From IMG/VR virus record IMGVR_UViG_3300044618_002542, positions 1-59,900 of that record: a stretch of DNA of 59,900 bases. One strand, written 5' to 3'. Below the pieces are notes generated by a model. The model worked only from the letters and a program-made list of their open reading frames with translations. It was not told the DNA's origin and did not search any database. Both the position numbers and the translations under genes were made by a program. This DNA is from a virus. Lineage: Duplodnaviria; Caudoviricetes. This document shows, in pieces, positions 1,286 through 59,109 of the stretch (the stretch's first letter is position 1; every line of letters starts with the position of its first letter).

Positions 1286-3313
1286 TCAAAACCTCTTCAT
1301 TTCCTTTTCAATAACTGGTTTCAAGCTTAACCCGATCCACTCACGCCAAAAGTAATCGCCATCCCGGCCTCTAGCGACTTCAATCTTCGGGACAATCGAC
1401 CGAACCCGTTTTGCGAATGCCTGCCGTGTCGATCGGTCGACTAGATCATTCGATCGGCACCAGTTTTGATAAGCTTCAAAACAGTCCGCCGCATTGACTT
1501 TGCCGCCTTCCTGGCAGCATTCCCAAACAAAAGCCGATACCGGGGAAGTCTCAATCCGCATCCAGTTAACCGAATCGGTCCCCGATTTCGGTTGCTTGAT
1601 CTTCCCGTTCTTTTCGGAGTAGAGCCGATGGCGGCCAAGAATCGCCCAGTTAAGTATCCCCGACAATTCTGACTGAATCCGCATTTCGACCCGCGGATCT
1701 TCTTTGCCGGCGTGGGTCTTATTCATGACCAAAATGATGATCCGATTCAGGATCGCGTCGGATGAATCCTTGAACAGCGGGATTTCATTCGAAAACAGCA
1801 TAAACCGAATCGGCAAATTGACCCCCGATAGGCTCGGCTTGTACTTCCGCTCGATCTCCTGGGGATCTTCGCCGACGATCGACAGGACACGCTCGGTCAG
1901 AACCGTGTAATCGATCCGGTCGCCAATTCGAGCATCGGGGATAACGGCTAAGGATTTACCGATCAAAGACGCCAAGCCAAACTGACCCGATAGCGTGGTC
2001 GGCGTCGGGGATGCTACCGACGAATGACCGATCATCGCTTTCACGAGCCGCATGATCGTACCCTTGCCTGACCGGGATTTTCCGATTACGCAAAGAAAGC
2101 GTTGCATCGAAGTGTCTTGCGTCAGCAAATAGCCAAACCACTCTTGCAAAGCGTCTATCGCCTCTTGGTCGCCCTCGAATTGCTCCCAGAGCCATTCTTG
2201 CCAGTAAAGACATTGGGCCTCGGGGTCGAAGTCATAATCCAGCTTCAAAGCCGAAAACCATTCGTGATTGTGAGGTCGAAGCGAACCCTCCAAATCACCC
2301 GACAATACCGCGTCGAGGTCGAGCAGTCCGTTTTTCATCGACACCCAATTTCGCCGCCGCCTGTCCGATAGGTGCGATGGCATTTCGACCGAACCGGACA
2401 ACGCGACCAAAGATTTCATGGCGGTCACGACATCGCGGATCAATCGGGTCGATACGTTCCGGACCTTTTTGGGCTTCTGCGGCTCCCCGGTCTCGATTTC
2501 TTTTCTTGCCCGTTCTTCCTCTTGAATTCGCCAAAGCCTTTCGAATTCGGCTCGAATCACTTTAAATAACTTGGCCTGTAGGTCGCTATCGCTGATCGGC
2601 GACCACAGGCCGGACTTCCATTTCCAGAATTCATCGCGCCAAAAAACTAGCTTTCCGCCGGCGAATTCCGAGTAAAACTGCAGATTTAACCGAGCAAGCC
2701 GAGTGTGGTCGTCGTCCGATTCGTCGATATCTACGCTGCCAGGGGTGAATTCTCGCGGCCCTTCTGGTATCGCTGCGATCGCGGTCTCGGCCGTCTGAAT
2801 TCTGACCGGACCGTCGATTTCCGCCGGTTGTTGAATCTGGCCGGATCGCCCTATCGCAAGCAATCGAGCGTATATCTCCTGGTCGTCGAGCCCTTCAAGC
2901 CTCTGATCGGCTATCCAGTCTCGAACGTCTTTTCCGTCCGTCGGGGCGATCGGATAAGGGAGAGTCGCATTCCGAACCGTCTTCGCGAATTTCGCGATCA
3001 CCGGCCCCCATCCGGGCCGCTTTCCGCCGTTCGGTTTACTGACCCATGTCGCGCCATCTTGGCCCGGCACGTCGCAATCGTGAATCACGATAACTTCGCC
3101 CGCACCCGCAAATCGTGAGCAGTATTCGACCGCTTCAGGTTTGGTCGCGTTTTCGTTCGATCCGTAAATGTTGGTCGTTACGATATGCCGCGGCCGCCGA
3201 TCCTCGGGAAACGAGAGAATCAACGAACGAATTGCCGCCGCGTCGGGAAACCCTTCGCATTTCCAGATCAGTTCCGCCGGCTCGGACGGGTCGAAAATAA
3301 AGCCAAACGCCAT
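1286..3313 (-). CDS. P4/D5-family primase-helicase, C-terminal part (TOPRIM + D5_N + SF3 helicase + winged helix), lacking the Zn-binding domain
   Basis: IWKCEGFPD, HDCDVPG and KDVRDW TOPRIM motifs; NGLLDL and LQEWFGY; Walker A GKSRSGKGT; C-terminal FEAYQNWC. Confidence 0.88.
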   Translation of the reverse strand: MAFGFIFDPSEPAELIWKCEGFPDAAAIRSLILSFPEDRRPRHIVTTNIYGSNENATKPEAVEYCSRFAGAGEVIVIHDCDVPGQDGATWVSKPNGGKRPGWGPVIAKFAKTVRNATLPYPIAPTDGKDVRDWIADQRLEGLDDQEIYARLLAIGRSGQIQQPAEIDGPVRIQTAETAIAAIPEGPREFTPGSVDIDESDDDHTRLARLNLQFYSEFAGGKLVFWRDEFWKWKSGLWSPISDSDLQAKLFKVIRAEFERLWRIQEEERARKEIETGEPQKPKKVRNVSTRLIRDVVTAMKSLVALSGSVEMPSHLSDRRRRNWVSMKNGLLDLDAVLSGDLEGSLRPHNHEWFSALKLDYDFDPEAQCLYWQEWLWEQFEGDQEAIDALQEWFGYLLTQDTSMQRFLCVIGKSRSGKGTIMRLVKAMIGHSSVASPTPTTLSGQFGLASLIGKSLAVIPDARIGDRIDYTVLTERVLSIVGEDPQEIERKYKPSLSGVNLPIRFMLFSNEIPLFKDSSDAILNRIIILVMNKTHAGKEDPRVEMRIQSELSGILNWAILGRHRLYSEKNGKIKQPKSGTDSVNWMRIETSPVSAFVWECCQEGGKVNAADCFEAYQNWCRSNDLVDRSTRQAFAKRVRSIVPKIEVARGRDGDYFWREWIGLSLKPVIEKEMKRF

Positions 3314-3318
3314 AGCGT

Positions 3319-3504
3319 CTACCTACGCAACAAAAGCTTGACCGCCGCCGACAGGACCGCCACGACTGCGACCAATACCGTCACCGGCCAAAAAATCGCA
3401 AGCAAAATCATTGAGACGAGCCCGATCCGGCCACCCCGCGGGGAATCGAGAGCCCAGAACAGCAAACAGGCCACCACCCAATAAATCGCACCCAGGACCG
3501 GCAT
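3319..3504 (-). CDS. Small membrane protein with two hydrophobic segments
   Basis: Hydrophobic 61 aa ORF preceded by AAGGGG, first gene of the leftward arm. Confidence 0.65.
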   Translation of the reverse strand: MPVLGAIYWVVACLLFWALDSPRGGRIGLVSMILLAIFWPVTVLVAVVAVLSAAVKLLLRR

Positions 3505-3731
3505 TGTTTTCCCCTTGCGTTAGAGTTGCGGCCGGTTAATCTATCGTCCGCACCAGCCACAATCAACCACATTATCCACAATGTCCACAACTCGACAACG
3601 CGAAAAAAATTTAACCCGTTGCCACGCAAAGACTTGCGGCACAATCTTTTTTTCTCGCCCGATTTTCTGCTTGTCGGTGCCGATACACGTCGCTAGATTT
3701 TCAGCGTCCACACCGTCCACAGCGTCAACAG
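3505..3731. promoter_or_regulatory. Divergent promoter/control region with CCACA repeats and a consensus DnaA box (TTATCCACA, 3572-3580)
   Basis: Non-coding gap between divergent gene arms; six CCACA-core copies spaced about 9-10 bp apart in two clusters. Confidence 0.55.
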
Positions 3732-3944
3732 ATGGCTCAATACCTTAAATCGAAATGTCTCACCCCTGGTTGTCGCCGGCCGTCACGGGCTCGCGGTTGC
3801 TGCGAGTCGTGCTACCGGTCGCACTTACGGGCGGTTCGGTCGGGCAAAACGTCCTGGCGTCGGCTAATTGCGGAAGGGCTGGCCAGGGGTCGTGATCGAG
3901 TTTTGGCGCTGCGGGCTCGGATTGCTGCGGGGGTCCAGAAATGA
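3732..3944 (+). CDS. Small basic Zn-finger protein, possible regulator
   Basis: CLTPGC..ARGCCESCY Cys pattern; first gene of the rightward arm; stop overlaps the next start. Confidence 0.65.
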   Translation: MAQYLKSKCLTPGCRRPSRARGCCESCYRSHLRAVRSGKTSWRRLIAEGLARGRDRVLALRARIAAGVQK

Positions 3945-4492
3945 TGACCGAATTTTGTACGATCCTGCCGATGGCTCAGTCGATTGTCCGCGGGGTCCAT
4001 CTTTTAGAAACAAAAACTTTTCAATACCCCGTCACTGTTGCGTTTCTAGAATCGATGGCAGGCGAGTTTTCTCCGCATTCGGCCTGGATTATACCGGCCA
4101 GTAAAAATGTGATTGCCGGCTATATTGCAATTACCCGCGGGCTTGGGATCGACGGCAAGCCGGTCGTCTCGATCAACTCGATAGCGGTTGACAAGCCTTA
4201 CCGCCGCAGCGAAATCGGCGCGTCGCTTGTGGGTTTTGTGGTTGGAAGGGCGGCCGGTGGCGTGCGGGTTACCGCGACGGTTCCGGATTGTTCGGCCGGC
4301 GCTCAACAGTTTTTCAAGGCTTGCGGCTTTACTTGTGTCGCTATTTTGCGCAATTGCTACGACGAGGGCGGAGACGGGCTGTTATTCCTCTACCCTGGCA
4401 GCCAAGAACCACAGCCGAGGTTTTCCGGATCGGTCAATTGTGATTCTCCGATCAGACTTCGTTCCCGCATTGAATTTAAGGGTCGCCCATGA
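3941..4492 (+). CDS. GNAT (RimI-like) acetyltransferase
   Basis: SIAVDKPYRRSEIGASL (motif A) and AQQFFKACGF (motif B). Confidence 0.8.
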   Translation: MMTEFCTILPMAQSIVRGVHLLETKTFQYPVTVAFLESMAGEFSPHSAWIIPASKNVIAGYIAITRGLGIDGKPVVSINSIAVDKPYRRSEIGASLVGFVVGRAAGGVRVTATVPDCSAGAQQFFKACGFTCVAILRNCYDEGGDGLLFLYPGSQEPQPRFSGSVNCDSPIRLRSRIEFKGRP

Positions 4493-5274: not shown

Positions 5275-5298
5275 TCTGTTAGTTTGGAGCATGAGAGC

Positions 5299-6297
5299 AT
5301 GAAAAGTTACGTTGAATTGGCTGGCAACATGCCAGCAATCGAAACCTTGGGGAAGTGGATCGCCGCTTCCGGGATGTTCGGAACGCTCACTTTGGCCCAA
5401 GGCCAAGTGATAGCGGCCCATTGCTTTATTACCGAAACCCCCCTGCTGGACTATCAGCGCCGTAACATGCTGGTCGGCAATCGGCCGGGAATTCCCTATG
5501 ACGCAATGGTCGCCGCGTTTCAAGAGGGTGGCGGGTCGCTAAAAGTTGTCGAAAAGTCGGCAAATGCTGCCAGGGTAGAGCTAACCGTTGGTGGGGTGAC
5601 GACGCCATTCGCGCTGACCTGGGACGAAGCCAAGCGAGAGCCGTTTGTTTATGGCGAAAAGGGGACGACCGAAAAAGAAATCGTACAGATGATTCGGGCC
5701 GAAAAATGGGCCGAACTTGAGAAGATCATGAAGCCGAAATATGCTTCGCCTCGATCCCGTGCTATCATGTTATGGGCTCGTTGCGTCTCCGATGCGATTC
5801 GCACCGTGGATCCGAAGGCCAATTTCGGCACGTACACCGAGGAAGAACTCGAAGATATACCGTCTTCGACACCCGCACCCACCGCACCCGCGGCGGCATC
5901 TACTACGCAGCCGGTTCACCCTCCGGCGCCGCCGCGGGTGCCTCTATCCACAGTCTCGACGCCGCCGGCACAGGCTGAGCCGGAAGTCATGCGCCCGGTT
6001 CCGCCGGCGGCCGTCGAGACGATTGAATCGGCGGTTTCTGAGCGGATCGACGGCCCGGCCAGTGAAGAACAGCGGGTCCGGTGTCTCGAATTGCTGGCCG
6101 AAATCGAGCCCGCATTTCCTGGGGTCAAAGCCAAGTTGGCCGAAAAACTCAAATCGGCAGGCATCCAGGGAGGGATTCGGGGATTGTCGGTCGCCGAGGC
6201 TGGCTCACTTGTCAAAGCGTTGGAAAGTCGAGCGATAGACGCATTTTTTACGCTCGATTTGAAGGGGCACTATCAGCCCCCTTTCGATGGAAAGTAG
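5299..6297 (+). CDS. RecT-like single-strand annealing protein
   Basis: MLWARCVSDAIR..GTYTEEEL motif; follows an exonuclease; Pro-rich linker; start moved to ATG 5299, which has GGAG upstream. Confidence 0.65.
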   Translation: MKSYVELAGNMPAIETLGKWIAASGMFGTLTLAQGQVIAAHCFITETPLLDYQRRNMLVGNRPGIPYDAMVAAFQEGGGSLKVVEKSANAARVELTVGGVTTPFALTWDEAKREPFVYGEKGTTEKEIVQMIRAEKWAELEKIMKPKYASPRSRAIMLWARCVSDAIRTVDPKANFGTYTEEELEDIPSSTPAPTAPAAASTTQPVHPPAPPRVPLSTVSTPPAQAEPEVMRPVPPAAVETIESAVSERIDGPASEEQRVRCLELLAEIEPAFPGVKAKLAEKLKSAGIQGGIRGLSVAEAGSLVKALESRAIDAFFTLDLKGHYQPPFDGK

Positions 6298-8914: not shown

Positions 8915-9385
8915 ATGTCAGACGAAAACTGGCCAGAATACAAAGCTAGCGATTTGGCTGAAGCGATTAAAACTTCAATCGACAAAGCCAAAAAGTCGAT
9001 CGGACTCAATTCGCAATTCATTTTAAGGCCAGTAGTAGCCAAGCCGATTAAAGGATTAAGGGGAACGGGCCGGACCACAAAAATGCTGGCGGTGGCCAAG
9101 AATCTTGCGGCCGAGAACCCGAATCGAAGAATTGTCGTGGTAATGGGTAATTTCGCGGAAGCAAACAAAGCGAGAATTTTACTTCCAGAGAAAATTAAAG
9201 TAATTCACGAACAAAACAGCGAGTGGTGTTGGAAAGAAAGAAGAATTCGCGGATTTGACAGAGAAACGGTTTACTTAATTGATCACTATGCAATTGAAAA
9301 AATGTTGAGAAGGGAGTTTGGCGATTTAATTGACCTGCTCCACGAACACGATCCAGAGACGATGTTTCTTCGGTATCAGCGATAG
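8915..9385 (+). CDS. Hypothetical protein with a degenerate P-loop-like motif
   Basis: RGTGRTTKML; AT-richer than neighbouring genes. Confidence 0.6.
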   Translation: MSDENWPEYKASDLAEAIKTSIDKAKKSIGLNSQFILRPVVAKPIKGLRGTGRTTKMLAVAKNLAAENPNRRIVVVMGNFAEANKARILLPEKIKVIHEQNSEWCWKERRIRGFDRETVYLIDHYAIEKMLRREFGDLIDLLHEHDPETMFLRYQR

Positions 9386-9462: not shown

Positions 9463-12105
9463 ATGAGCAGTACACTTGAAATAATCGCCCGCTATCAAGG
9501 CGAGCGCATGCGCTGGCCGATCGACGACCCGGAATCGCCAGGGGATTTTACCCTGATCGGTCTGGCGGCCGTCTGCGAACAATCGCGGGAAATCTGCAAA
9601 TCCGCCGGGATCGACACCGACGAGCCAGTCACAATCAAAGGAATTGCAAACGACGAAGAATTGGAGCGAAACGGCTCTTACCGTTTTTTCGGCTCGTTTT
9701 CGTATTACACAAACCGCCGGACCGGCGACCGCGAAAAACAATTCCATTTTCGATCGTTCACCCGCCATGTCCCGCACGACCCGGACGGGCTTGCCGACTA
9801 TCTAGCCGCGGCCGGCAAAGGGAACGGGATCGGACACCGAAAGGCGATGGCGCTAGTCAGGGCGTTTGGTTGCGAATCGGTATTGTCGAAATGCAAAGAC
9901 GATATCGCCGCGGTGATGGCCGAAACAGGGATCAAAGAGGAACAGGCAAGAGCGTTTGCCGAATTACTTAAAGCCCGTCAGGCTACCGAGAATTCCACCC
10001 TGGAAGTGGAACGGATCTTAGCGAAGAAGAAATTCCCCCGCGCCCTAACGCGCAAACTGATAAAGACCTGGGGCGCCGAAGCCCCACAGCGAATTCATGA
10101 TGATCCGTTTTCGCTGATGCAATTTCGTGGAGTTGGGTTCTTACTTGCCGATCGTCTTTGGATCGATCTAGGCAAGGATCCCGCAGCGATTCGCCGGCAA
10201 GCCGCGTACATTTGGCATGAAGTCCACACGTCGCGCGACGGCCACGCATGGCACGACGTAGAGGCGATCGCGGTCAAGCTCCGTCGAGCAATCGGCGCAA
10301 AAGCGAACCCCCGCGACGCGATATTAGCCGGGAAGGAAATTTTCGCGAAATCGCCGAACGAGTTTGGAGCGATTGCGACTGCTCGGAGTGATTCGAGCGG
10401 CCGATACGATCCGAAGGGCGGAAAAGTTTGGGTCGCTGACGGAAAAGACGAAGAATCGGAACGGTGGGTCGCTGATTTGGTTTCGGCCGCGGTAACGGAA
10501 GTCCGGCCGGTTTACTACTACCGCCAGGACGATCCTCAGCCGACGGCGGCGAAGATACTCGATTCGGCGCGATGCCAGCGATGTTATCGGCCGTTGACCG
10601 CCTCCGATATTCACGTCCTGCACGGTCGGCCGTATGGGCCGACGTGTATCACGCACGTTGACCCGAGAGGGACCGCGGAAATCGTCTCCCAGGAAGAATG
10701 GAACGAACGAAACGAGATCAAGCCACAAGAAGTCTCGCCGGCGAAGCTGGTTAGCGTCCCCGAAGTATCGCTCTGGCCGGACGAATCGGAAATCGAGGGG
10801 ATCAGCGACCACCAGCGAGAGCAAATCGGCAAGTCGTTGACTGCCAGGGTAGGTTTACTCGGGGGCTCACCGGGGACCGGAAAAACATACACGATTGCGG
10901 CATTGATCAAGGCGATCGCACGGGGCGGGCGGGTGCCGCTCGACCAAATCGCGATCGGGGCGCCGACCGGAAAAGCCGCGGTTCGATTGACCGAATCCCT
11001 GCACGCTTGCGGACTCAGCGTCTACGCTCGGACGTGGCATTCCCTCCTGGGAGTCGCGAAGGCCGGCGACGGCGAATCGGAAGAATGGGGGTTCGTTCAC
11101 GGGCTCAAACAGCCGTGGAGCTATCGAGTCATAATCGGCGATGAGACTTCGATGGTTCCAGCCGGCTTGATGGCGTCGATACTCAAAGCCCGGCCGAACG
11201 GCTGCCACGCTCTTTTTGTCGGTGATGCAAACCAGCTTGCCCCCGTTGGGGTCGGCGCCCCGTTCCGCGATTTTATCGGGGCCGGTCTGGCATACGGCGA
11301 GCTTCGCGAAATCAAACGCAATTCCGGCGGCATTGTCGAAGCCTGCGCCGATATTCGCGATCGACGGCCGTGGGCCGCGAATTACTGCGACCCCGGCCAA
11401 AACCTTTGGATCACCGGTGACCGCACGCCGGCAAGTCAAATTGCAAGAATCTTGTCGCTGATCGAAAACTGCCCCGGCGATCCGGTTTGGGACTGTCAAG
11501 TCTTAACGGCGGTCAACCAGCGGTCGGAGTTATCGCGGGAAGTCCTGAACCATATCCTGCAGGATCGACTAAACCCGAATCCTCCGGTTGAAGGAACCGA
11601 CTTTAGAATCGGCGATAAAGTCGTCTGTCTATCCAACGGCGGGTACGATCCGACCGACGACACTGAATCCGATGGGCAAATCTATGTCGCGAACGGCGAA
11701 ATCGGCCGGGTGCGGGAAATCATGCCGGGCCGGATGGTTGTTACGCTCGAATCCGGCGAGCGCGATAAATCGATCGTCGTCTTACGCGGTCCCAAGAGCA
11801 CCGAAGGCGACGCGACCAACGGTTGCCCGTGGGATCTTGCTTACGCCATGTCGGTTCACAAGTATCAGGGAAGCGAGCAGAAGACGGTCATCGGCGTTCT
11901 GGACAACTATTTCGGCGCGAAGATGCTTTGCGACCGTGCCTGGATTTACACGCTGATCAGCCGAGCCAAGCACTTTTGTCAATTGGTCGGGACGAAGGAA
12001 ACCGCCGAGTTGTTTTGCAAGGTTTCCCGAATGCACTTGCGAAAAACGTTTCTTGCCGATCGCATTCGCGAAAAACTTTACTCGCACGACACCGAGGGGT
12101 TGTAA
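9463..12105 (+). CDS. recD2: RecD2-like SF1B helicase with HhH N-terminus and an inserted Zn finger
   Basis: GIGHRKA and GVGFLLAD HhH motifs; GSPGTGKT, APTGKAA, DETSM, GDANQL, AYAMSVHKYQGSE, YTLISRAK. Confidence 0.9.
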   Translation: MSSTLEIIARYQGERMRWPIDDPESPGDFTLIGLAAVCEQSREICKSAGIDTDEPVTIKGIANDEELERNGSYRFFGSFSYYTNRRTGDREKQFHFRSFTRHVPHDPDGLADYLAAAGKGNGIGHRKAMALVRAFGCESVLSKCKDDIAAVMAETGIKEEQARAFAELLKARQATENSTLEVERILAKKKFPRALTRKLIKTWGAEAPQRIHDDPFSLMQFRGVGFLLADRLWIDLGKDPAAIRRQAAYIWHEVHTSRDGHAWHDVEAIAVKLRRAIGAKANPRDAILAGKEIFAKSPNEFGAIATARSDSSGRYDPKGGKVWVADGKDEESERWVADLVSAAVTEVRPVYYYRQDDPQPTAAKILDSARCQRCYRPLTASDIHVLHGRPYGPTCITHVDPRGTAEIVSQEEWNERNEIKPQEVSPAKLVSVPEVSLWPDESEIEGISDHQREQIGKSLTARVGLLGGSPGTGKTYTIAALIKAIARGGRVPLDQIAIGAPTGKAAVRLTESLHACGLSVYARTWHSLLGVAKAGDGESEEWGFVHGLKQPWSYRVIIGDETSMVPAGLMASILKARPNGCHALFVGDANQLAPVGVGAPFRDFIGAGLAYGELREIKRNSGGIVEACADIRDRRPWAANYCDPGQNLWITGDRTPASQIARILSLIENCPGDPVWDCQVLTAVNQRSELSREVLNHILQDRLNPNPPVEGTDFRIGDKVVCLSNGGYDPTDDTESDGQIYVANGEIGRVREIMPGRMVVTLESGERDKSIVVLRGPKSTEGDATNGCPWDLAYAMSVHKYQGSEQKTVIGVLDNYFGAKMLCDRAWIYTLISRAKHFCQLVGTKETAELFCKVSRMHLRKTFLADRIREKLYSHDTEGL

Positions 12106-12605
12106 TGCAGATTTACGCTTTGAACGGCTACCTTTACTCGATTGAACCGCGATTAAAACCCGCCCTGGCAGATTACGTCGTGCAGTTCCCGTATCACGCA
12201 AATTGGACACCGAGACGGGCCGAGGCGCTATCGGCGACGATCCGGAGCCCTTGCATCCTGATCGGATTTTCAGACGGAGCCGATGCGGCGGCCAGAATTG
12301 CGAAATCAAATCCGAACGTCAAAGCCCTGTTTTTTCATTCCGGACTAGACAGCGGAATAAAACTTCCCGATTCGGTTGATTTCGTTGCGTATCGAACGAC
12401 TGGCGATCGCACCCCGACCTACCAACAAACAAAACGGTTTTATTGGCGGCAGCGAGACGGGGTAATGGTTGAACTCGTTCCGGTTGCGTTTGACGATCCA
12501 ACGCGATTCGAGCGGACGTTCTTGACTCCGCTTGGCCATCAGTTTCACAACGCTATCCCGCACTTGGTTTCGGCGATCGGGGAGGTCATGAAAAAATGGT
12601 CCTAG
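12105..12605 (+). CDS. Small alpha/beta-hydrolase (esterase-like)
   Basis: Nucleophile elbow LIGFSDGA, GD and C-terminal GHQF; ATG overlaps the helicase stop (TAATG). Confidence 0.65.
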   Translation: MQIYALNGYLYSIEPRLKPALADYVVQFPYHANWTPRRAEALSATIRSPCILIGFSDGADAAARIAKSNPNVKALFFHSGLDSGIKLPDSVDFVAYRTTGDRTPTYQQTKRFYWRQRDGVMVELVPVAFDDPTRFERTFLTPLGHQFHNAIPHLVSAIGEVMKKWS

Positions 12606-15182: not shown

Positions 15183-15917
15183 ATGGCGAAGTATGAAATC
15201 AAAGCGCTCAAGGCCGCGGCTTTGGGCGCTTGGCCGGCGATCGTCGAGCGGGTCGGCGGGATATCCGACGACTACTTGGCGAATCGACACGGCCCCTGCC
15301 CTCGATGCGGCGGGAATACTCGGTTCCGAGTGTTCGAAGATTTTGACCGGACCGGCGGGGCGGTGTGTTCCCATTGCGGAAAATTCGGCGACGGTATCGC
15401 GCTCGTCCAGTGGGCGACCGGCCAGAGCTTTTTACAGACGGTGGAGTCGATCGGCGATTTTCTGGGAGTCGCGCCGGCGGGGAAGACTGCCAGGGGTGGT
15501 TCAGCAAAGACGAAACCGGCTGAGGCGGCCAAGAAATCGACGAAGGAACCGAAAAAGGAAACGACAAAGGGAAAAGAGCCCGACGAAGCCTTGAAAACGG
15601 GCCAGGACGAGACGAAAGCCGATCCGATGCGGAATATCCAGTGGATCGCCTGGAATCACCCCTTGGTAGCATTTTGGTGCTTCAGAAAGGGGTTGTCGGT
15701 CGAGTCGCTTCCGGCGGGGTCGAGACTTTGCACTTACCGCAAGCGATACACCTGCCTTGCGGTTCCGGCGAAGTCGATTGGTGGGGAAGTCTGTGCGTGG
15801 TTGATTTACGAAATTGGCGGGGGGCGTCTCCCGCATTTTGAAAAGGGATCAAAAGAGGTAGCGGAATGGTTGAAAGTGAAAATAATCAAGACGAAATCCG
15901 AAGGTTTGCAAAAGTAG
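15183..15917 (+). CDS. Primase N-terminal part: P4-alpha-type Zn-ribbon plus the N-terminal catalytic subdomain
   Basis: HGPCPRCGG.TRFR...CSHCG.GDGIALV; then RKGLS..LAVP..GEV; strong GGAGG RBS. Confidence 0.85.
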   Translation: MAKYEIKALKAAALGAWPAIVERVGGISDDYLANRHGPCPRCGGNTRFRVFEDFDRTGGAVCSHCGKFGDGIALVQWATGQSFLQTVESIGDFLGVAPAGKTARGGSAKTKPAEAAKKSTKEPKKETTKGKEPDEALKTGQDETKADPMRNIQWIAWNHPLVAFWCFRKGLSVESLPAGSRLCTYRKRYTCLAVPAKSIGGEVCAWLIYEIGGGRLPHFEKGSKEVAEWLKVKIIKTKSEGLQK

Positions 15918-22102: not shown

Positions 22103-22106
22103 AAAA

Positions 22107-22499: not shown

Positions 22500-22508
22500 T
22501 TCTTTCCC

Positions 22509-30121: not shown

Positions 30122-30154
30122 TGCTGCCAGGGAGGGTTACGGGTCGGGAGTCGA

Positions 30155-33793: not shown

Positions 33794-33798
33794 AAACG

Positions 33799-33859: not shown

Positions 33860-33893
33860 TAGTGGCTGTTTGGTGGTGGTCTAGTGGTTGGTA

Positions 33894-45812: not shown

Positions 45813-47416
45813 TTCGCGAGTCCTCTGCTCTGTAGTTCGCGGCCTAAAGACTGGGCGAAAGCTTCCGGGGAGGGGAATACTGCGCCGGCCCCTCGCATCG
45901 CTGCGAAAGCGGCTTTGGGGCTTCCAGGGGGTGTTGGCTCACCGCCGGCGGCCGATCCGGGAACCATTCCTGGCGGCATTCCCGGTTGCTGAGGCGGGTG
46001 AATCTTCGGGTTGGCCAAGATTTCGTCGTCCGCATCCGGCCGGGCCGATCCGATTATCTGATAAAGCTCGTCCGACTTGATCTTGAGCCCCATTTCGTAG
46101 GCTTTTCCGATGGCGTCGAGTCGTTCGCGGACGTTATCGGATTCGGTATCAATGACGAATTTGACGCCGATATGCGCCGACTTCGGAAAATTCCAAAGCT
46201 GCATCGGCCGCAAAATATCGGTGGTGATCGCTTCCTGAAGCTTCACCGCGTCATAACTGAGGATATCGCCAAGCGTCGCTAAGTGTGCGTCGGCAACCCC
46301 TGAACCCATCCCGGTTGCGTCCGCTTCGCTTGAAAGCGTTTGGCCAAGGATATATCGCTTGATCTTGTGGCCAAAATACGTCCGGATTATCTCAATTGTC
46401 GTATTGACCCCGCCGAGCCCCGGTTCGACAAGTTGAGGCATGTACCGGTCAGAATCCTCGCCGGCGGGAATCGGTGCAAGAATCACTGTCCGCCCGCCAC
46501 CCATCGCGGCGTAAGCGGCTTTTTCCGTCTCGATTTTCGCTTTTTGATTGCCGCTTTGATACGGCCAAATCTCAATCCCAAATGCGGCCCGGTCCAGGTA
46601 CTCGATAACCCGCTGCAAACACTCGATTTGGGCGTACCACGTCCAATAAATCCGATCGCGAATCCCGACCCCGTGGATTCGGCCGGCCATGCGGGGCTGA
46701 TCCCACGGGCCGTCTTCAATTAAATGCTTGTGGACCGCGACGGTGGCCCGCTCCCATCGGTTTAACCAGTAAACCAAGCCGGATTCGGTTGCCTGAATCC
46801 TGGCTCGGCCTCTTTCGTCCCTGTTGCTGGGGAGTTCTGGCCGGAATGCGGACGAAACACGGATCCCGATTTGGTCGGGGTCGATATCGTGGGATCCGTC
46901 GTCGTACCGAAAAACAAGCTTATCTCCGTGCCGCGGCTCCCATCGGCGAATGACCGTTCGCCATTTTCCGCCGATGTTTTTCGCCCCGTACTGATTGGCG
47001 ACGGCATAACGGCCGTACCAGATTGCTTCCTGCATTACCCGCCGATATTCCGTGAAATACGGCGTATTTTCCAAAATCGTCGTCAGCGCCGCGGCCAAAT
47101 CTTTTTGTTCTTGGCTCTTTTCGTCATCCGTGGCTAAGTGCCACGGACAAAGGGCGACGGTTCGCTGCCGACCTTCGACGCACTCCATGATCCCGCAATC
47201 GGCCCGCATCCTCTGAGCATTTGCTCTGCTGTCTTGCAGAGCTTCATCCATATTCAGGTAGCTTTTGGACGAAACGCCAAACCGGCCCGATGCCGTGTGA
47301 ATATGGGGAACGACATCCATCCCGAAATTCGGCGGCGCCCCTGTCCCCTTGGCTGGATCGCGCAAAGACGCCTGAATTATCGACGCTGGGATCATGCGGG
47401 GGTCGATTTCGGCCAT
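45809..47416 (-). CDS. Portal protein, Mu gp29/DUF935-like
   Basis: AIWYGRYAV and ILGQTLSSEA...GVADAH motifs; 535 aa, downstream of terminase. Confidence 0.85.
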   Translation of the reverse strand: MAEIDPRMIPASIIQASLRDPAKGTGAPPNFGMDVVPHIHTASGRFGVSSKSYLNMDEALQDSRANAQRMRADCGIMECVEGRQRTVALCPWHLATDDEKSQEQKDLAAALTTILENTPYFTEYRRVMQEAIWYGRYAVANQYGAKNIGGKWRTVIRRWEPRHGDKLVFRYDDGSHDIDPDQIGIRVSSAFRPELPSNRDERGRARIQATESGLVYWLNRWERATVAVHKHLIEDGPWDQPRMAGRIHGVGIRDRIYWTWYAQIECLQRVIEYLDRAAFGIEIWPYQSGNQKAKIETEKAAYAAMGGGRTVILAPIPAGEDSDRYMPQLVEPGLGGVNTTIEIIRTYFGHKIKRYILGQTLSSEADATGMGSGVADAHLATLGDILSYDAVKLQEAITTDILRPMQLWNFPKSAHIGVKFVIDTESDNVRERLDAIGKAYEMGLKIKSDELYQIIGSARPDADDEILANPKIHPPQQPGMPPGMVPGSAAGGEPTPPGSPKAAFAAMRGAGAVFPSPEAFAQSLGRELQSRGLAK

Positions 47417-47482
47417 TTTGCTACCAGGGTGGGTTACGCGGCGGGGTTGATCGTATCATAAATCGGGGCGGATTTCGACACT

Positions 47483-48451: not shown

Positions 48452-49851
48452 CGGTATTGCCTGTCCCTTTTGTCACGGATCCGCTGAAGGGCGACCACGG
48501 CCCCAAATCGTTGCGAGTCGACCGTCTGCCGTGTCTTCGTCGCCGGCTCCCCTGCCGACATCATACCGCTTGCCAGCTTGTTAAATGCCCCGGCCGTTGC
48601 ATCCACTTGGTCGTCGTGAGCGAATTCCGGGAAAGCGGTCAACTCATCAATCCAATCTGAATTCCACGGCGCCGATACAATCCGGATATTTCCGGCCTCT
48701 GCCTGAGCGGACAGCCCCATTGCCCGAACGATTTTCGCCTCCCCTGGCAGTTTTTCCCCGCCGACCATCCGGCGGCTTGCACCTACTGAAACGTTATCAA
48801 TGAATGCCGGGAAGCCTACCAGCATTTTAACGAACATCTGCGAAACTTCCTTTCCGCCCGACCCGCCTTCCTGCTCACCGAATACCAGAACCTCGTTTTG
48901 GTACTTTCGCGCATCATCCCTGGCGGTCTGCAGAATGACCTGATTTCGGTCGTGATAACTCCATTGGCCACGTTTTACGTCCTCGACGTAGAAGATCCCG
49001 CGACTATCGACCGCCATCAGGACGCCCGCCGAATAGTCGCCGTCCCCCTCGGTGGAAGCCCGATCCCAGTACCGGACCCGTTGACAGTCCCTCGGGACGT
49101 GGTCGACAAATTGAAACCACTCCCGGCGGAACATCAGCCCTTCGATATCGACGAATTCGCCTTCGAGTTCCTGGGCGGACAATCGCGAAGAATACCGGCC
49201 GCGAATGTTTTCAAAAAATTCCTTCGGCAAGAACGGGTTGTCAATCGTTCTTGCCCGGATGAGGCCGGTGTTATTTTTCGGCTTGTATGGCTTGCCGTTC
49301 GCCGTTACGCATCCCTCGAAATAATCTTCATTTTGTCCTAGCGGTTCAAAGCATTCGGTGAACGTCCAGTGTTTCGTCCCCCTGGGTGTGAACGTCAGCC
49401 ACAGCGGCCCCATTTTGCCCTTGTAGCGAAGCGTCGGGATAATCACGTCAAACGCGGCGCGGCTTGTCAAACTGGCTTCATCGATCCAGACGCCAGCTTT
49501 TGACGGCCCGGCCAGTTTGTCCGGCACCTCGGCCGATCGAAAAACAATCGACGCGACCCCGCGGTCGGAGGTTCGCCACCAAATCCTGGGGTACGGTGAC
49601 AGGATTTGGCGAATGTACACGTCCGTTTGCTTGGCTACTTCCTCGAACGTCGGGAAGGTTGTTTCCCGGACGACCCCAGCGTCAGGGGATAAGGCGGTAA
49701 ACTGATCGCCCGATTTCGCGTATTTTTGGACGGCGCGAGCCCCGATAACCGTCTTACCGACACCGCGGCCCCCGCAAAAAGCACGAATCCAGGTTTTCAG
49801 GTCGATAAAACCGGCTTGCTTGCGGTAGATCGGAAACGGCCTGACTTTCAT
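48448..49851 (-). CDS. terL: Terminase large subunit
   Basis: GGRGVGKT, WIDEAS, TFTP, DNPFL; nuclease YWDRAS and HDDQVDA. Confidence 0.93.
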   Translation of the reverse strand: MKVRPFPIYRKQAGFIDLKTWIRAFCGGRGVGKTVIGARAVQKYAKSGDQFTALSPDAGVVRETTFPTFEEVAKQTDVYIRQILSPYPRIWWRTSDRGVASIVFRSAEVPDKLAGPSKAGVWIDEASLTSRAAFDVIIPTLRYKGKMGPLWLTFTPRGTKHWTFTECFEPLGQNEDYFEGCVTANGKPYKPKNNTGLIRARTIDNPFLPKEFFENIRGRYSSRLSAQELEGEFVDIEGLMFRREWFQFVDHVPRDCQRVRYWDRASTEGDGDYSAGVLMAVDSRGIFYVEDVKRGQWSYHDRNQVILQTARDDARKYQNEVLVFGEQEGGSGGKEVSQMFVKMLVGFPAFIDNVSVGASRRMVGGEKLPGEAKIVRAMGLSAQAEAGNIRIVSAPWNSDWIDELTAFPEFAHDDQVDATAGAFNKLASGMMSAGEPATKTRQTVDSQRFGAVVALQRIRDKRDRQYR

Positions 49852-50406: not shown

Positions 50407-51393
50407 TCACTTTACCGCCGGGGATTCCAGCATTTTTGCGACCTTGGCCCCGGTGAGTCCGGGGTACTCGTTTTTCAGCGCGGAGGCAATTTCGCCGGGC
50501 TTCATGCCGTCGACCGCACAAGCGGCCACCCGCTCGACCACGTTATCAATTTCGGCGTGCGGTCCCCTCTGGCCGGCGGATTTCGCCCGCTGAAACTGCT
50601 CGTCCTCCTGTCGTCGCATTTCGGCCAAGCGATCGGCGGGGGAGGCTGCCAGGGAAGGTAACTGCCCGTCAATCGGCATTCCGAGGAAATCGGCCCGCTC
50701 CTTGACCTGCTCGACGCTAACCCCCTTCATCCGTGCGATTTGGGCAGACGGAACCCGCTGCTCGATCAATGAATCGATCGACTCGGGGGCGATCTTCGCC
50801 GGCTTCGGCTTGCTCGGATTCGCGTACCGGTTTCGTTTGGTACGCTCGGACCATTCCTTTTCAGTCTGTTCGACTTTTCGCCGATAGGCCGGTGAAGTCC
50901 AGGTTTTCCGGTCGTAATGAGTGCCCGGCTTTTCGTATTCTTCTCGCACCATCCGAACGTCGGCAAATCCGTACTGTAGAGCGATTTGACGATCTGAAAC
51001 GCCTTGGACCTCAATGAGCGTCTTGATCGATTCGGGGTAAACGATCTTCAACGGCTTCACGTCGCCGATCGCCGACCATGCGTTCCAAAGCTGATGACTG
51101 CCGGCTGGGTCGGTGTTTGAAGCGTCGATTTCAATCCCTTGGCTCCAATCTGCCAGGGTGTGTTCAAATCGGTCAATCGCCAGGACTAGCGGCTTGGCTT
51201 CCATTTCTGCTTCGGCCGTGTCGCATAGATCGATCAAATCGGCCCACGCATTCGCGACGGCTTCGGAAATTGTCTTTCGTTCAGCCCCCCGCCAGTTCAC
51301 AAGCGGAGCCGATTCCTCGGGCATTTCGTTCCACTGGTCGATCGTCGCTTGGGCTCTAGCGATTTGGTCGGTTAGTTGTTGTCTGGTCAGCAT
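50407..51393 (-). CDS. Protein with repeated HTH-like units
   Basis: ESIKTLIEVQGVSDRQIA, ESIDSLIEQRVPSAQIA and GMKPGEIA repeats. Confidence 0.65.
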   Translation of the reverse strand: MLTRQQLTDQIARAQATIDQWNEMPEESAPLVNWRGAERKTISEAVANAWADLIDLCDTAEAEMEAKPLVLAIDRFEHTLADWSQGIEIDASNTDPAGSHQLWNAWSAIGDVKPLKIVYPESIKTLIEVQGVSDRQIALQYGFADVRMVREEYEKPGTHYDRKTWTSPAYRRKVEQTEKEWSERTKRNRYANPSKPKPAKIAPESIDSLIEQRVPSAQIARMKGVSVEQVKERADFLGMPIDGQLPSLAASPADRLAEMRRQEDEQFQRAKSAGQRGPHAEIDNVVERVAACAVDGMKPGEIASALKNEYPGLTGAKVAKMLESPAVK

Positions 51394-51426
51394 CGAACCA
51401 TTCCTGGCAGTTTGTTGGGGGATTTC

Positions 51427-51884: not shown

Positions 51885-52808
51885 TTAGAACTTGGGGGAA
51901 CGAACGATCAGAAACTCTTCGTCCGTTCGCTTATCGACAATTCGAAAATCGGCAAACGGGTTCGAGGGGTCGGGGGTTGGTGGCGGGTCGACCGGATCCG
52001 GTTTCCCGCCGGGGACGCGAAGCATTACTTCATCAGAGGGGCGCACCTTGTTTTTCACGATGTAGCCAAGCGACCTGGACTGAGCAAAGTCCGCTTCGGC
52101 TTGCCACGCCTTGCGGGCTAGCGATTGCTGATTGATTTCCGGCCTCATCAGAGCCCCGGCCGTCTGAACGTGAGGATGCCCCAATGCGTGCCCGATTTCG
52201 TGCGCCATCGTCGTAGCGCCGAACCATAGTTGCCACGTCCGATCGGAGTCGATCCGCTGCTGCTTTGGCCGGCTGCACGAATTATCTGCGAGGTAAGACC
52301 ATGCTAGGGTTGACCCGCTGAGAGACGCCGCATCGCACCAAATATGTGCGCCGTCCTTCACCCATCCGGGGTTGGGGGTGATCAAGACATCCAGGGAGTG
52401 ATTCCAGCAATTCATCGCCGCGATCAACATCTGATCAACTTCGGCTTGGCTCAATCCCTTGAGGGCCTTGAATACCCTGCCGTATCGAAGTTTACCGCGG
52501 CATGACTGCGGCCAGTTCGCTTCGGCCGGCTGATCCGAAGCGTAGAGCCGAACACCTGCAGAATCGACCGGGAAATCGGGGAAACCGCACCGGGGTTCTT
52601 CGATGATCGCCGAAAATTCCGGACTATCGCCTTCGTGGTCGACTTTCGACCGCATGAAAAGCTGATAGCTTTCGATCGCCGTTTTGACCGCTTGGTCGGT
52701 CAATTTCAGAAGCGGCAAGTCTTTTTCCGCTATCCCGGTCGGGGCTACCGGATTGTTGAAATGCCCCAAATCGTACAAGCGGCGGATAATTTCGGCGGAT
52801 CGCATCAT
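51885..52808 (-). CDS. Matrixin/MMP-like (M10) zinc metalloprotease with a cysteine-switch prodomain
   Basis: PRCGFPD, HEIGHALGHPH, Met-turn ALMRP. Confidence 0.88.
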   Translation of the reverse strand: MMRSAEIIRRLYDLGHFNNPVAPTGIAEKDLPLLKLTDQAVKTAIESYQLFMRSKVDHEGDSPEFSAIIEEPRCGFPDFPVDSAGVRLYASDQPAEANWPQSCRGKLRYGRVFKALKGLSQAEVDQMLIAAMNCWNHSLDVLITPNPGWVKDGAHIWCDAASLSGSTLAWSYLADNSCSRPKQQRIDSDRTWQLWFGATTMAHEIGHALGHPHVQTAGALMRPEINQQSLARKAWQAEADFAQSRSLGYIVKNKVRPSDEVMLRVPGGKPDPVDPPPTPDPSNPFADFRIVDKRTDEEFLIVRSPKF

Positions 52809-53872: not shown

Positions 53873-54373
53873 TCACCAGTCTCCCAGGAACAGTAATTTA
53901 GCCACTTCACCGCGTTCCTGATCGGTAAGTGGCTCCAAATCCTTCGGCATTTCGCCGCTTAGAATCGAACGCATGACCTTAGACTTCTGCTCTGCGGTCA
54001 GCGTCGCCGATCCGTCGAGCACGATTCCGCCGGCCGAATTTTGAGCAGAATGACATTTGGCGCACTTCTGGGCCAGGATGGAATTCACCGGGGCCGATCT
54101 CGATTCGGCGATTGATTTTTCGGCTTGAAGAAACAAGCGAAATTTCTTCAATAGCTCGGCGTCTTCATGGTCCGCCGATTGTCCCATCCTAGCAGACTCG
54201 ACAAGCACCTGAGCCCGATACGGCGCACCGACGAGGTAAAGCACCTGCGGGGCGGCTTTTTGCACGACCGCATACTCTACCGATCGCTGAACCTGCTGAA
54301 CCTGATAACAATCGGTCGCGGTCGCGGGGACGGATGCAAACAGGACTGCCAGGAGAGTTACAAATCGGATCAC
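53873..54373 (-). CDS. Exported planctomycete-type monoheme cytochrome c domain protein
   Basis: Signal peptide; ILAQKCAKCH...GGIVLD...ILSGEMPK...LTDQE (CxxCH plus distal Met). Confidence 0.85.
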   Translation of the reverse strand: MIRFVTLLAVLFASVPATATDCYQVQQVQRSVEYAVVQKAAPQVLYLVGAPYRAQVLVESARMGQSADHEDAELLKKFRLFLQAEKSIAESRSAPVNSILAQKCAKCHSAQNSAGGIVLDGSATLTAEQKSKVMRSILSGEMPKDLEPLTDQERGEVAKLLFLGDW

Positions 54374-55656
54374 GGCTGCGATCTCCAGTCTTGGACCGAT
54401 CGCACCGCTTGGGCATAAATCGATTCCCAGGACGTTCTGGGGATCGTGAATCCGTGGGCGAGGGCGATCAACCGGGGGTGAACGGGTTGCCCGCTATTCT
54501 GAGCGTATCCGATTGCTTTTGTCAAATCGTCGGGGATTACGCCGACTTCACGGGCTGCGGTTTCGATCGTCAACGGCGAGTCGTAAAGCTTGACCGTCGA
54601 AACAAAATCGGCGACGGCTTCGCGGGGCGGCTTACCCGTCACCGCTTCGACAATCGCCGCGAATTCCTTTCGGTTTTCGCGTAGTTCGTTCTCTAGGTCA
54701 GACAGGTGAAACGACTCGATTTTCCGCTGCGTGGTCTTGTCGCTGGCGTATAGCTCGGCCCCGGCCCCGATCAGTTCCCGAACCTCGTTTGATTTAACGT
54801 CGATCAGCCCCTCGGCATGGCAAGCAATACACGAAACGCCGTTTCGAATTTCGGTTGCGTTGTGACGAACTCGGGTGTAGTCGCTCGCCACGTCCGGCGG
54901 CGCCGCTTCCTGTCTTTGGCCGGCGGCGTTGCTCAATAGATAAACCTGCAAAGCCCCGCGGGTGCCGGTCGCCGTGTGGATCTTCGGCACGCCCACAATC
55001 CATTCTTCGGCCTCATGCTGAAAGCTGCCGTCGGGCCGAAGCGTCGGGTCGGTTCGGTCGTTGATTGTTGACGAATCCCGCGTCCCGTAGGCGTAACCTT
55101 GACGAACTCCGAACGACTCAATCCATCGTTTCTTCGATAGGATCACCCCGGAATTCCCTTCGATCAAACCGAACGACTGACCGGCCGATCGGGACACGCC
55201 GACCCGTGACAGAAAATCATCCCTGGTTGCCGGCGGGGCGCCGAATAGCAAATCGTAATAACTGGTCGATTCCTTCGCGTCGGTCGCGAACGTAATAAAC
55301 CAATCGGCCCGGATCACCAGAGATGGCCGGCCCTTCGCGAAAACTGCGTAAGGGTTTCGGGCTGCGACAATCGGGAATCGAGATTCCCAGCCGAATGCCG
55401 CGGTATCGATCCAATAAAGCCCTTCGCCGGCCGGGTTTGGTTTCTGATAGTCGACGATGGGCTCAAGGGATAGCGACGGCAGGATCAGACGGAGGGCTGC
55501 CAGGGTGGGTTCGTGTCGGTCCGGCGGAAGGTGGTTGACCGAAAAGTAATAAGTCGTCGCCGGATCGAGCCCGCTAGAATCGCGGTGGGCGGTCGCCGCG
55601 GCCCCGTCGAGGACGGGAAGCACGCCGGCGAGTAAAAGATAGATAATGGTCAGCAT
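54370..55656 (-). CDS. Exported protein with a c-type heme motif
   Basis: Hydrophobic N-terminus; IRNGVSCIACHAEG. Confidence 0.75.
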   Translation of the reverse strand: MLTIIYLLLAGVLPVLDGAAATAHRDSSGLDPATTYYFSVNHLPPDRHEPTLAALRLILPSLSLEPIVDYQKPNPAGEGLYWIDTAAFGWESRFPIVAARNPYAVFAKGRPSLVIRADWFITFATDAKESTSYYDLLFGAPPATRDDFLSRVGVSRSAGQSFGLIEGNSGVILSKKRWIESFGVRQGYAYGTRDSSTINDRTDPTLRPDGSFQHEAEEWIVGVPKIHTATGTRGALQVYLLSNAAGQRQEAAPPDVASDYTRVRHNATEIRNGVSCIACHAEGLIDVKSNEVRELIGAGAELYASDKTTQRKIESFHLSDLENELRENRKEFAAIVEAVTGKPPREAVADFVSTVKLYDSPLTIETAAREVGVIPDDLTKAIGYAQNSGQPVHPRLIALAHGFTIPRTSWESIYAQAVRSVQDWRSQP

Positions 55657-58253: not shown

Positions 58254-58499
58254 TTACTGAGCGGCTGCCCAGACTTTTTCGACAAGCTTGTCATACTCGC
58301 CATCACCTAAAACCATGTCGAATGCGTCTTTGACTGGTACGCCAAGCTTAACCAGTTGGTCAAACGCCAAAGCAACGACAAACTTTTTAAAATCTTCGAC
58401 GCTGCCAAACTCTTTCCTGAGGTCGATTTGGTTTGCGTTTGCAAAATCCAGCAGGAGCTTTTGAATACCGTTCAACAGTTCAAGGCTTTGGCTTTTCAT
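58254..58499 (-). CDS. Hypothetical protein (early)
   Basis: Start reassigned to ATG 58499, downstream of the promoter. Confidence 0.7.
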   Translation of the reverse strand: MKSQSLELLNGIQKLLLDFANANQIDLRKEFGSVEDFKKFVVALAFDQLVKLGVPVKDAFDMVLGDGEYDKLVEKVWAAAQ

Positions 58500-58539
58500 T
58501 TTTGCGTTCCGTTGTTTGGGGTGACTGTCTGACTCCCTA

Positions 58540-58580
58540 AATATATCGTCCGCCGTTTGATTGTCAAATAGCAAATCAAA
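58540..58580 (-). promoter_or_regulatory. Sigma70-type promoter with a palindromic operator, copy 2
   Basis: TTTGATTTGCTATTTGACAATCAAACGGCGGACGATATATT. Confidence 0.75.
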
Positions 58581-58611
58581 CATTTTTCCCGAAATACCTC
58601 CCGACCCGCCT

Positions 58612-59109
58612 TTATTCAGCAAATCGGCCCGAAAGACTATCTTTTTCCGCTTTTCTCTCTGCTTTCACCCGCTCATATTCCGCTTTTGCCGATTCCCCCG
58701 TCGCTTTCACCCCGCACACCGCACACCGCGTATCCGTCGTCCCGTCCGAATAATGCTGTTCAGCCAGCATCGACGACCAGCACCTAACGCAAACCGGCTC
58801 GAAACACTGAAGCCAGTTCCGGCCAGTCTCCCAGACGATCGCCGGGACGCTGCCAGGGGTGGTTTCTCCGCTCGTCGTTGGCTCGGGCGACGGCTCGGGC
58901 GGGATTTCAGCCAGGGTGGGTTCCTCGGTCGCGTCCTGGGGCCGTTTTTCGCGGCCTAGCGTGATCGGCAGGGCGTCCGGCCCGCGGTCGATCGCTGCCA
59001 GGGTGAGTTCATCGTCCGGGGTCAGGATCGGCGACGGTCCGGCCTGAGTCGGTTTCGCGTCTGGTTTCGCGGCTGGTTCGAACCGCTTGAAGTTTGGGAA
59101 TAGCGCCAT
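58612..59109 (-). CDS. Hypothetical protein with a C-terminal Zn ribbon
   Basis: CVRC...CAVC; AAGG upstream. Confidence 0.65.
   Translation of the reverse strand: MALFPNFKRFEPAAKPDAKPTQAGPSPILTPDDELTLAAIDRGPDALPITLGREKRPQDATEEPTLAEIPPEPSPEPTTSGETTPGSVPAIVWETGRNWLQCFEPVCVRCWSSMLAEQHYSDGTTDTRCAVCGVKATGESAKAEYERVKAERKAEKDSLSGRFAE

Follow-up and report, generated by a model that had tools for sequence, protein, structure and literature searches.

The 59,900-nt stretch of viral DNA analysed here (IMG/VR record IMGVR_UViG_3300044618_002542, positions 1 to 59,900; "the window" in the following) carries a short, asymmetric word with the core CTRCCAGGG, which is dispersed in both orientations, is shared by a group of related phages and is maintained by purifying selection. 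As host genomes are at background level for the word while an integrated relative of the window phage is saturated with it, the word belongs to the phage lineage, and we regard it, with a probability of roughly 0.55, as a phage-owned, density-dependent tag that is read by a phage-encoded factor.

Copy number and consensus of the word

An earlier note on this DNA had listed 29 copies of CTRCCAGGG, and exact matching reproduced every coordinate and strand (21 copies on the + strand, 8 on the - strand; Table 1), as well as the spread of about 2 kb (mean spacing 2.0 kb, coefficient of variation (CV) 0.74) and the occurrence in genes of both orientations and between genes. Inside called genes lie 26 of the 29 copies, in all three frames and in both orientations relative to the gene, with the majority of the sense copies encoding x-Leu-Ala/Val-x; the other three are intergenic, including the two that had been placed just upstream of the adaptor and portal start codons (2 and 4 nt, respectively). 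In 100 dinucleotide-preserving shuffles the word occurred 0.28 times on average and at most twice, and CTGCCAGGG is the top over-represented 9-mer of the window (22 copies vs 0.52 expected under an order-3 Markov model). The enrichment also survives the codon-aware shuffling proposed in the note, i.e. 300 synonymous-codon shuffles within genes gave a mean of 4.19 copies (standard deviation 1.06, maximum 9) vs the 29 observed.

Although the enrichment stands, the word as first written is too narrow. Position 3 may be any nucleotide, yielding 33 copies in the window (G22, A7, T3, C1), a purine precedes the word (position -1), C does not occur at positions +10 to +12, and T prevails at +13 and +14. 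Using a position weight matrix (PWM) with a threshold of at least 12 bits for site membership, which admits degenerate members, 48 sites are found in the window (29 on +, 19 on -) vs 0-1 in Markov-1 random sequence. The resulting consensus is R-C-[T>a,c]-N-CCAGGG-N-D-D-D-T-T-Y, and that of the integrated relative is R-C-T-N-CCAGGG-G-R-R-R-G-G, with the core as in the window and a different flank. The site is thus asymmetric and about 17 bp long, consisting of an invariant core, C..CCAGGG, and a C-free, purine-rich 3' flank that is lineage-dependent.

The word in host chromosomes and phage DNA

A host Chi or translocase signal had been proposed, together with a search for enrichment in Planctomycetota chromosomes, and the host genomes do not support such a signal. 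In a search of 401 Planctomycetota genomes for the large terminase (TerL), a metagenome-assembled genome (MAG) of Planctomycetaceae (G002, 7.0 Mb) was the sole match; its TerL relative (L004, 59% identity) carries the word and lies in a 1.13 Mb contig. The complete MAG contains 126 copies of CTRCCAGGG, as many as of the reversed-word control (126), and 33 of these copies are packed into the 62 kb prophage at C1:342,895-405,238. Gene order in this prophage follows that of the window, with protein identities of 35-73%. Its left border is formed by host genes (Usp and Fe-S) and its right border by a tyrosine integrase gene (C1:404,928-405,980), and it contains genes for a C5 methylase, a helix-turn-helix (HTH) protein, ThyA and DnaJ in addition to what the window has. 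Word plus flank matches 16 times in the whole of G002, 15 times in the prophage (control, 0), and CTNCCAGGG occurs 52 times in a 67 kb prophage stretch (G29, T16, A4, C3) vs 0 in 32.7 kb of host flank. With the weight matrix the prophage has 69 sites (39 on +, 30 on -) vs 1-2 in random sequence.

A second MAG of a candidate host (G408), which includes the carrier locus L006, has 55 copies vs 97 of the control, and the phage contig is the only one with 3 copies; three further Planctomycetota genomes (G004-G006) are at control level, and one (G003) has a mild excess that is weighed below. Host Chi, FtsK-orienting polar sequences (KOPS) and uptake signals are therefore refuted for the hosts examined. 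The second suggestion of the note, a site for a phage protein, is compatible with all our results, which do not tell packaging, methylation, nicking or other roles apart.

Selection and turnover in related phages

Carriers of the word are the window phage, its near relatives L001 and L002, the G002 prophage, L146 (77% TerL identity to this prophage; 10 copies in 16.8 kb) and L006 (three copies of CTTCCAGGG in 5.3 kb). In a TerL tree of the window and 29 loci of our choice, those carriers whose TerL is complete (the window, L001, L002, L004 and L146) cluster with a support of 88/73; L006 was left out as its TerL is cut by the contig end. The sister of the carriers in a clade with 100/98 support, L005, has no copy in 13 kb vs about 6.5 expected (by arithmetic), and no replacement word was found in it. 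The candidate TGGACGAA was rejected, being a codon effect of Leu/Met-Asp-Glu and ranking 13th of 39 loci.

The sites are under purifying selection. Over 15.5 kb, L001 and L002 share about 92% identity with the window, and 10 of 11 sites are retained in each of them, whereas only 54% (L001) and 51% (L002) of control 9-mers are unchanged; one change in L002 is a G to A at the degenerate position 3, which leaves the word intact. Between more distant lineages, density and sequence are conserved and positions turn over, i.e. 3 of 14 sites of the window have an orthologous position in the prophage, and 3 of 19 in the reverse direction. The word occupies 26 of the 75 window positions and 32 of the 107 prophage positions at which the encoded peptide is compatible with it, as compared to none of 42 in the adjacent host genes. 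As about one third of the permitted positions are used, selection must be strong enough to shape synonymous sites genome-wide.

Strand, placement and spacing

Placement is random and independent of strand, reading frame, gene boundary and replication origin. The 21:8 strand split of the exact copies reflects which peptides can host the word: occupancy of peptide-compatible positions is 40/114 in sense and 18/68 in antisense orientation (Fisher p = 0.25), the 40:18 split does not differ from the opportunity share of 0.63 (p = 0.35), and once all members are counted, the + and - strands carry 29 and 19 sites, respectively, in the window and 39 and 30 in the prophage. With the circle divided at the iteron array (about 59.4 kb), our own tally gives 11+:11- for one half and 18+:8- for the other, with no switch. 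Four of the 48 sites lie outside genes, vs 6.6% of non-coding DNA.

Evenness of spacing is weak at best (CV 0.80 and 0.88 vs 0.98 for random placement, P = 0.07 and 0.17). Pairs 140-180 nt apart number 4 in the window vs 1.4 expected (P = 0.04, post hoc) and 3 vs 2.4 in the prophage, which is not significant. Contig ends at most 60 nt from a site were counted in 9 of 62 cases vs 6.1 expected (P = 0.15; the 32 listed pieces of 256), and the contigs of four runs that cover 20,001-40,000 vary at 17 places, none of which is in a site, and list no starts or stops of molecules. A sigma-54-type or other promoter was dismissed by eye, as there is no downstream TTGC and sense copies are not enriched near gene ends.

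Proposed role of the word

Dispersed words are known from chromosomes (Chi, KOPS, uptake sequences) and from phages (stoperators, nick sites). The word described here has uptake-sequence-like statistics but is phage-owned, and it differs from both phage precedents in placement and strand; no description of such a word was found in the literature, supplements aside. In terms of population genetics its closest match are the uptake signal sequences (USS) of Pasteurellaceae and the DNA uptake sequences (DUS) of Neisseria. These have a core of 9-10 bp with a weaker flank, occur about once per 1-2 kb, are mostly genic in the cheapest frames and strand-unbiased, and turn over in position at constant density; core plus flank, intragenic location, lack of bias and turnover are all found here as well. 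USS and DUS, however, fill the chromosomes of bacteria, where the competence machinery recognises them, whereas the present word is restricted to phage DNA, with host genomes at background level.

We propose that a clade of tailed phages of Planctomycetota maintains about one copy per 1-2 kb wherever the peptide permits, and that a phage-encoded, sequence-specific factor would read the site on double-stranded DNA, probably with one conserved reading head for the core and a second, diverging one for the flank. The effect of this factor would scale with the number of copies per DNA molecule, and such copy-number dependence would enable the word to label phage DNA as 'self' in a lytic-cycle step that involves the whole genome. 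As to how this might be achieved, a DNA-binding protein without catalytic activity, by which phage DNA would be marked for packaging selection or shielding, appears the likeliest option, and we put it forward tentatively.

Several observations weigh against this proposal. The absence from hosts was examined only in G002 and G408, which contain relatives, and in G003-G006, and a host-encoded factor may read the word. G003, the genome of L005, has 255 copies vs 156 of the control, a mild excess that is spread over many contigs. L005 itself has the same packaging block and no word, which argues against a simple link to the packaging genes. Within the regions compared no shared protein is exclusive to the carriers, and no reader was found. 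Among the conserved proteins described in the next but one section, the zinc-ribbon family, like the D5 primase, also occurs in the word-less loci L056 and L069, and the family of the 328-aa protein, probably a multi-HTH protein, yields only sub-threshold hits and has its members mostly in word-less loci.

Alternative explanations

Unlikely, but the most serious of the alternatives, is that the copies are recognition sites of a phage-encoded nickase or base-modifying enzyme, so that packaged DNA would be nicked or marked at each of them. According to PMC3517423, the nick sites of phage tf are a strict 9-mer with one R position (TACT/RTGMC), 14 of them in 46 kb, with hardly any near-miss variants and with lineage-specific versions in relatives; the word, with its strict 9-mer core, single degenerate position, dispersal and lineage specificity, has very similar statistics and resembles the sites of tf, T5 and phiKMV, whose role is described as unsettled even in these model phages. 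Moreover, an SNase-like endonuclease, an ERCC4-like nuclease and an N6/N4 methyltransferase are encoded in the window, the word includes CCWGG, and the prophage encodes a C5 methylase. The sites of the tf, T5 and phiKMV type are, however, confined to a single strand (14 of 14 on the top strand in tf), whereas the word is on both strands in window and prophage and 3-4 times denser. In addition, conservation of the core is not matched by conservation of the methyltransferases, and the SNase-like gene has no counterpart in the prophage.

Silencing of the prophage by an immunity repressor that blocks transcription from many copies, as in Cluster A mycobacteriophages (e.g. L5, Bxb1 and TipsytheTRex), is rather improbable. 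Stoperators, as described in PMC6550527 and PMC9283540, are asymmetric sites of 13-14 bp with a phage-specific consensus and 20-30 copies or more per about 50 kb, located in promoters and short intergenic spaces, oriented along transcription and bound by a monomer with two DNA-binding domains. Restriction to phages, asymmetry, lineage specificity and tens of copies per 50-60 kb are common to both systems, the two-part site would suit a monomer with two reading heads, and the carriers include at least one prophage that is integrated and encodes an integrase. By contrast, 44 of the 48 sites are genic, the orientation bias is gone after normalisation for coding opportunity, and the word is absent from the early control region (3,313-3,731), which has GTCCACA repeats of its own. 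Furthermore, no integrase was detected in the window phage and its sites are nevertheless under selection, and lineages with the common core have largely unrelated early regions.

Even less probable, in our view, is a Chi-like attenuator, be it for the RecBCD/AddAB enzyme of the host or for a phage RecD2-type helicase with a nuclease that would spare word-bearing DNA. A short, asymmetric, dispersed word with a density-dependent benefit would fit, genes for a RecD2-like helicase, an exonuclease and a RecT-like protein are present in the phage, and the lack of polarity would be no objection, as a circularly permuted linear genome would need both orientations. The resemblance to E. coli Chi that had been noted earlier is limited to a shared CTGG. 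Chi is over-represented in the chromosome of its own host, a defining feature that the word lacks in G002 and G408 (counts given above), so that the host version fails. For the phage version, we know of no Chi-type recognition by a RecD2-family helicase, although no search aimed at it was made. In contrast to KOPS and other FtsK-type sequences, the word has no strong skew and no switch at origin or terminus.

We give still less credit to priming or replication signals, i.e. start sites of the Zn-ribbon primase or loading sites of the D5-type primase-helicase at roughly Okazaki-length spacing. The spacing of 1-2 kb, the purine at position -1 and the conservation of both proteins in the two complete genomes would agree with such a role; however, a separate GTGCTCG iteron array would be the natural target of a primase-helicase, and, unlike the clustered origin iterons of the P4-alpha/D5 type, the word is dispersed. 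A flank element that could hold a GTT-type trinucleotide is absent from the prophage lineage, and the D5 family is also present in word-less relatives. Long primase recognition sites are a weak precedent, since the one such site checked, that of NrS-1, is flexible with a 3-nt minimum (PMC8718748).

Finally, it is very improbable that the word has no function and arises from codon or peptide usage, a recurrent protein motif, biased mutation or short sequences that act as recombination joints: the frame preference does track coding cost (x-Leu-Ala/Val-x), but synonymous shuffles yield far fewer copies, the word is found in every frame, in either orientation and also between genes, compatible positions in adjacent host genes are empty, and boundaries of the blocks homologous to L001 and L002 lie at a median of 445 nt from sites, as against 397 nt for random positions (P = 0.65).

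Candidate readers

Beyond virion genes, the lineages have in common a replication/recombination set, two small zinc-finger proteins and a 328-aa protein. A small-terminase-like protein, the ERCC4-like nuclease, the RecD2 helicase, the Zn-ribbon primase and the D5 primase-helicase are likewise shared. The zinc-ribbon protein comprises a proline-rich N-terminus, a Cys4 zinc ribbon and a basic helix, and its gene (58612-59109 in the window, 376,543-377,058 in the prophage, 1673-2176 in L146) contains 1-2 copies of the word in each lineage.

The 328-aa protein (50407-51393) belongs to an unannotated family of about 330 aa that is present in 84 of 225 loci, always just upstream of a small-terminase-like gene and TerL. 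Its predicted structure (pLDDT 84.5) appears, in our reading of the model, to consist of an N-terminal four-helix bundle and three HTH-like units. As a reader it was not backed by any of the searches: Foldseek gave no match at E <=0.001 (top rows were sigma factors with E 0.13 and weaker), VIA-align retrieved only a generic N-terminal helix bundle (Z <=7.4), and Pfam HTH families hit 3 of 17 members, below the cut-offs. The HTH-like leads thus agree with one another, but all stay below threshold.

Sequence searches with the remaining shared proteins of unknown function gave no match, and no HTH repressor common to the lineages was detected at E <0.01. The N6/N4 methylase of the window is weakly related to an SNF2-methylase fusion of the prophage (E 3.5e-9 over a short stretch), and the C5 methylase is found in the prophage and not in the window; thus, no methyltransferase is conserved along with the word.

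Private words in other phages

Other phages have words of their own. In a 3.1 Mb MAG of Anaerolineaceae (G007), the palindromic TACTSAGTA has 21 copies (control, 9), every one of them within a single 29 kb prophage (C18:597,883-626,979; L025 and L142-L144), and another locus, L029, has 11 copies. TACCGAGCG occurs 10-14 times in 9-14 kb of the viral contigs L127, L128 and L129 (14 copies in L127 and 13 in L129, each in about 14 kb), and the 8-mer GCTCGGTA is found 19-20 times in L127 and L129, dispersed and on both strands. L208 contains CTTCACCCC 11 times in 17.8 kb (0.15 expected), and L010, with 10 copies of TATCGACC in 21 kb (1.0 expected), may have a weaker word of its own. L025, L029, L127 and L129 have only TerL in common with the window (L208 was left out of this comparison).

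The presence of private words in unrelated phages suggests a general feature of phage genomes that is missed by annotation pipelines, and such words would help to spot prophage boundaries and to link contigs of one phage lineage. It is possible, if doubtful, that they form a hitherto unrecognised class of orientation-free, density-dependent 'self-identity' words of independent origin (CTNCCAGGG, TACTSAGTA, TACCGAGCG and CTTCACCCC) with uptake-sequence-like evolution, by which a phage factor would tell phage DNA from the larger host chromosome, either to select what is packaged or to protect it from a nuclease made by the phage.

A tandem coding repeat in L054 (16,975-19,496), with 30 copies of TACGCCGAC at multiples of 45 nt, has no relation to the dispersed words.

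The window phage and its sites

All 48 sites of the window are compiled in Table 1.

Table 1. Sites of the word in the window (coordinates refer to the 9-nt word; PWM, found with the weight matrix, scores in bits where given).
Sequence	Position	Strand	Type	Remark
CCGCCAGGG	887..895	-	degenerate, PWM 17.6 bits	
CTGCCAGGG	2736..2744	+	exact, PWM	
CTGCCAGGG	4393..4401	-	exact, PWM	
CTGCCAGGG	5567..5575	+	exact, PWM	
CATCCAGGG	6162..6170	+	degenerate, PWM 15.4 bits	
CTTCCAGAG	9182..9190	+	weak degenerate, PWM 12.4 bits	at threshold
CTTCCAGGG	9998..10006	-	position-3 variant, PWM	
CTGCCAGGG	10841..10849	+	exact, PWM	
CTGCCAGGG	12163..12171	-	exact, PWM	
CTGCCAGGG	15487..15495	+	exact	G002 prophage site at equal position (within 3 nt)
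CTACCAAGG	15661..15669	-	degenerate, PWM 15.0 bits	
CTACCAGGG	18858..18866	-	exact, PWM	
CTGCCAGGG	19949..19957	+	exact, PWM	
CTGCCAGGG	20423..20431	-	exact, PWM	
CTACCAGGG	21489..21497	-	exact, PWM	
CTGCCAGGG	23520..23528	-	exact, PWM	
CTGCCAGGG	23886..23894	+	exact, PWM	
CCTCCAGGG	25377..25385	+	degenerate, PWM 14.6 bits	
CCGCCAGGG	26509..26517	-	degenerate, PWM 14.8 bits	
CTACCAGGG	27279..27287	+	exact	orthologous position in G002 prophage
CAGCCAGGA	28095..28103	-	weak degenerate, PWM 12.2 bits	at threshold
CTGCCAGGG	28800..28808	+	exact, PWM	
CTGCCAGGG	30124..30132	+	exact	intergenic, 2 nt upstream of adaptor start
CTACCAGGG	31477..31485	+	exact, PWM	
CCGCCAGGG	34159..34167	-	degenerate, PWM 14.8 bits	
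CTGCCAGGG	34791..34799	+	exact, PWM	
CTTCCAGGG	38606..38614	+	position-3 variant, PWM	
CTGCCAGGG	38923..38931	+	exact, PWM	
CACCCAGGG	40636..40644	-	degenerate, PWM 14.0 bits	
CTGCCAGGG	41480..41488	+	exact	compared in L001/L002
CTCCCAGGG	42144..42152	-	position-3 variant, PWM	
CTGCCAGGG	42291..42299	-	exact	intergenic
CTACCAGGG	42686..42694	+	exact	L002 has CTACCAAGG
CTACCAGGG	42860..42868	+	exact	compared in L001/L002
CTTCCAGGG	45921..45929	+	position-3 variant, PWM	
CTACCAGGG	47421..47429	+	exact	intergenic, 4 nt upstream of portal start
CTGCCAGGG	48742..48750	-	exact	in TerL, position common to G002 prophage and L146
CCGCCAGGG	48918..48926	-	degenerate, PWM 13.5 bits	
CTGCCAGGG	50646..50654	+	exact	L002 G to A at position 3 (word intact); L001 has CTGCCAAGG
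CTGCCAGGG	51150..51158	+	exact	compared in L001/L002
CTGCCAGGA	51402..51410	-	degenerate, PWM 15.4 bits	outside called genes
CATCCAGGG	52388..52396	+	degenerate, PWM 13.7 bits	
CTGCCAGGA	54346..54354	+	degenerate, PWM 13.0 bits	
CAACCAGGG	55221..55229	-	degenerate, PWM 14.3 bits	exact CTRCCAGGG about here in L001 and L002 (coordinate arithmetic)
CTGCCAGGG	55497..55505	+	exact	compared in L001/L002
CTGCCAGGG	58850..58858	+	exact	in conserved zinc-ribbon gene
CAGCCAGGG	58908..58916	+	degenerate, PWM 17.1 bits	
CTGCCAGGG	58995..59003	+	exact	in conserved zinc-ribbon gene

By Pfam and PHROGs the window derives from a tailed phage. Its genes for replication and DNA metabolism encode a D5-type primase-helicase, a Zn-ribbon primase, the RecD2-like helicase (51% identical between lineages) and the N6/N4 methyltransferase, its nucleases are an exonuclease, the ERCC4-like nuclease and the SNase-like endonuclease, and virion and packaging functions are represented by a Mu-type portal and adaptor and the large terminase, next to a 2,243-aa polyvalent protein. 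As the near relative L001 joins the end of the window to its start with about 350 nt in between, the window is a nearly complete, circularly permuted genome. The names attached to its TerL relatives are from Planctomycetota, and blastn of the portal-TerL region against the phage collection yielded no similar record. An integrase was not detected among the genes of the window, whereas the G002 relative is integrated and has its tyrosine integrase.

The recombination module, all of which is common to the G002 prophage, consists of a 3'-5' exonuclease (4489-5274), a RecT-like protein (5284-6297; assigned from the atlas with a score of 0.95 and 24 of 30 hits) and a conserved 201-aa protein (6457-7062). 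Eleven copies of GTGCTCG in about 450 non-coding bases (59,158-59,599), in both orientations and often at about 10-nt spacing, form the iteron array, probably the replication origin, between the zinc-ribbon gene and the next early gene. The divergent control region separates the primase operon from the rightward operon, with the GTCCACA-type repeats at 3,520-3,731; neither this region nor the iteron array contains a copy of the dispersed word. The control region is followed by a conserved Cys-rich open reading frame of 70 aa (3732-3944, +), which matches positions 383,711-384,037 of the prophage (E 1e-15).

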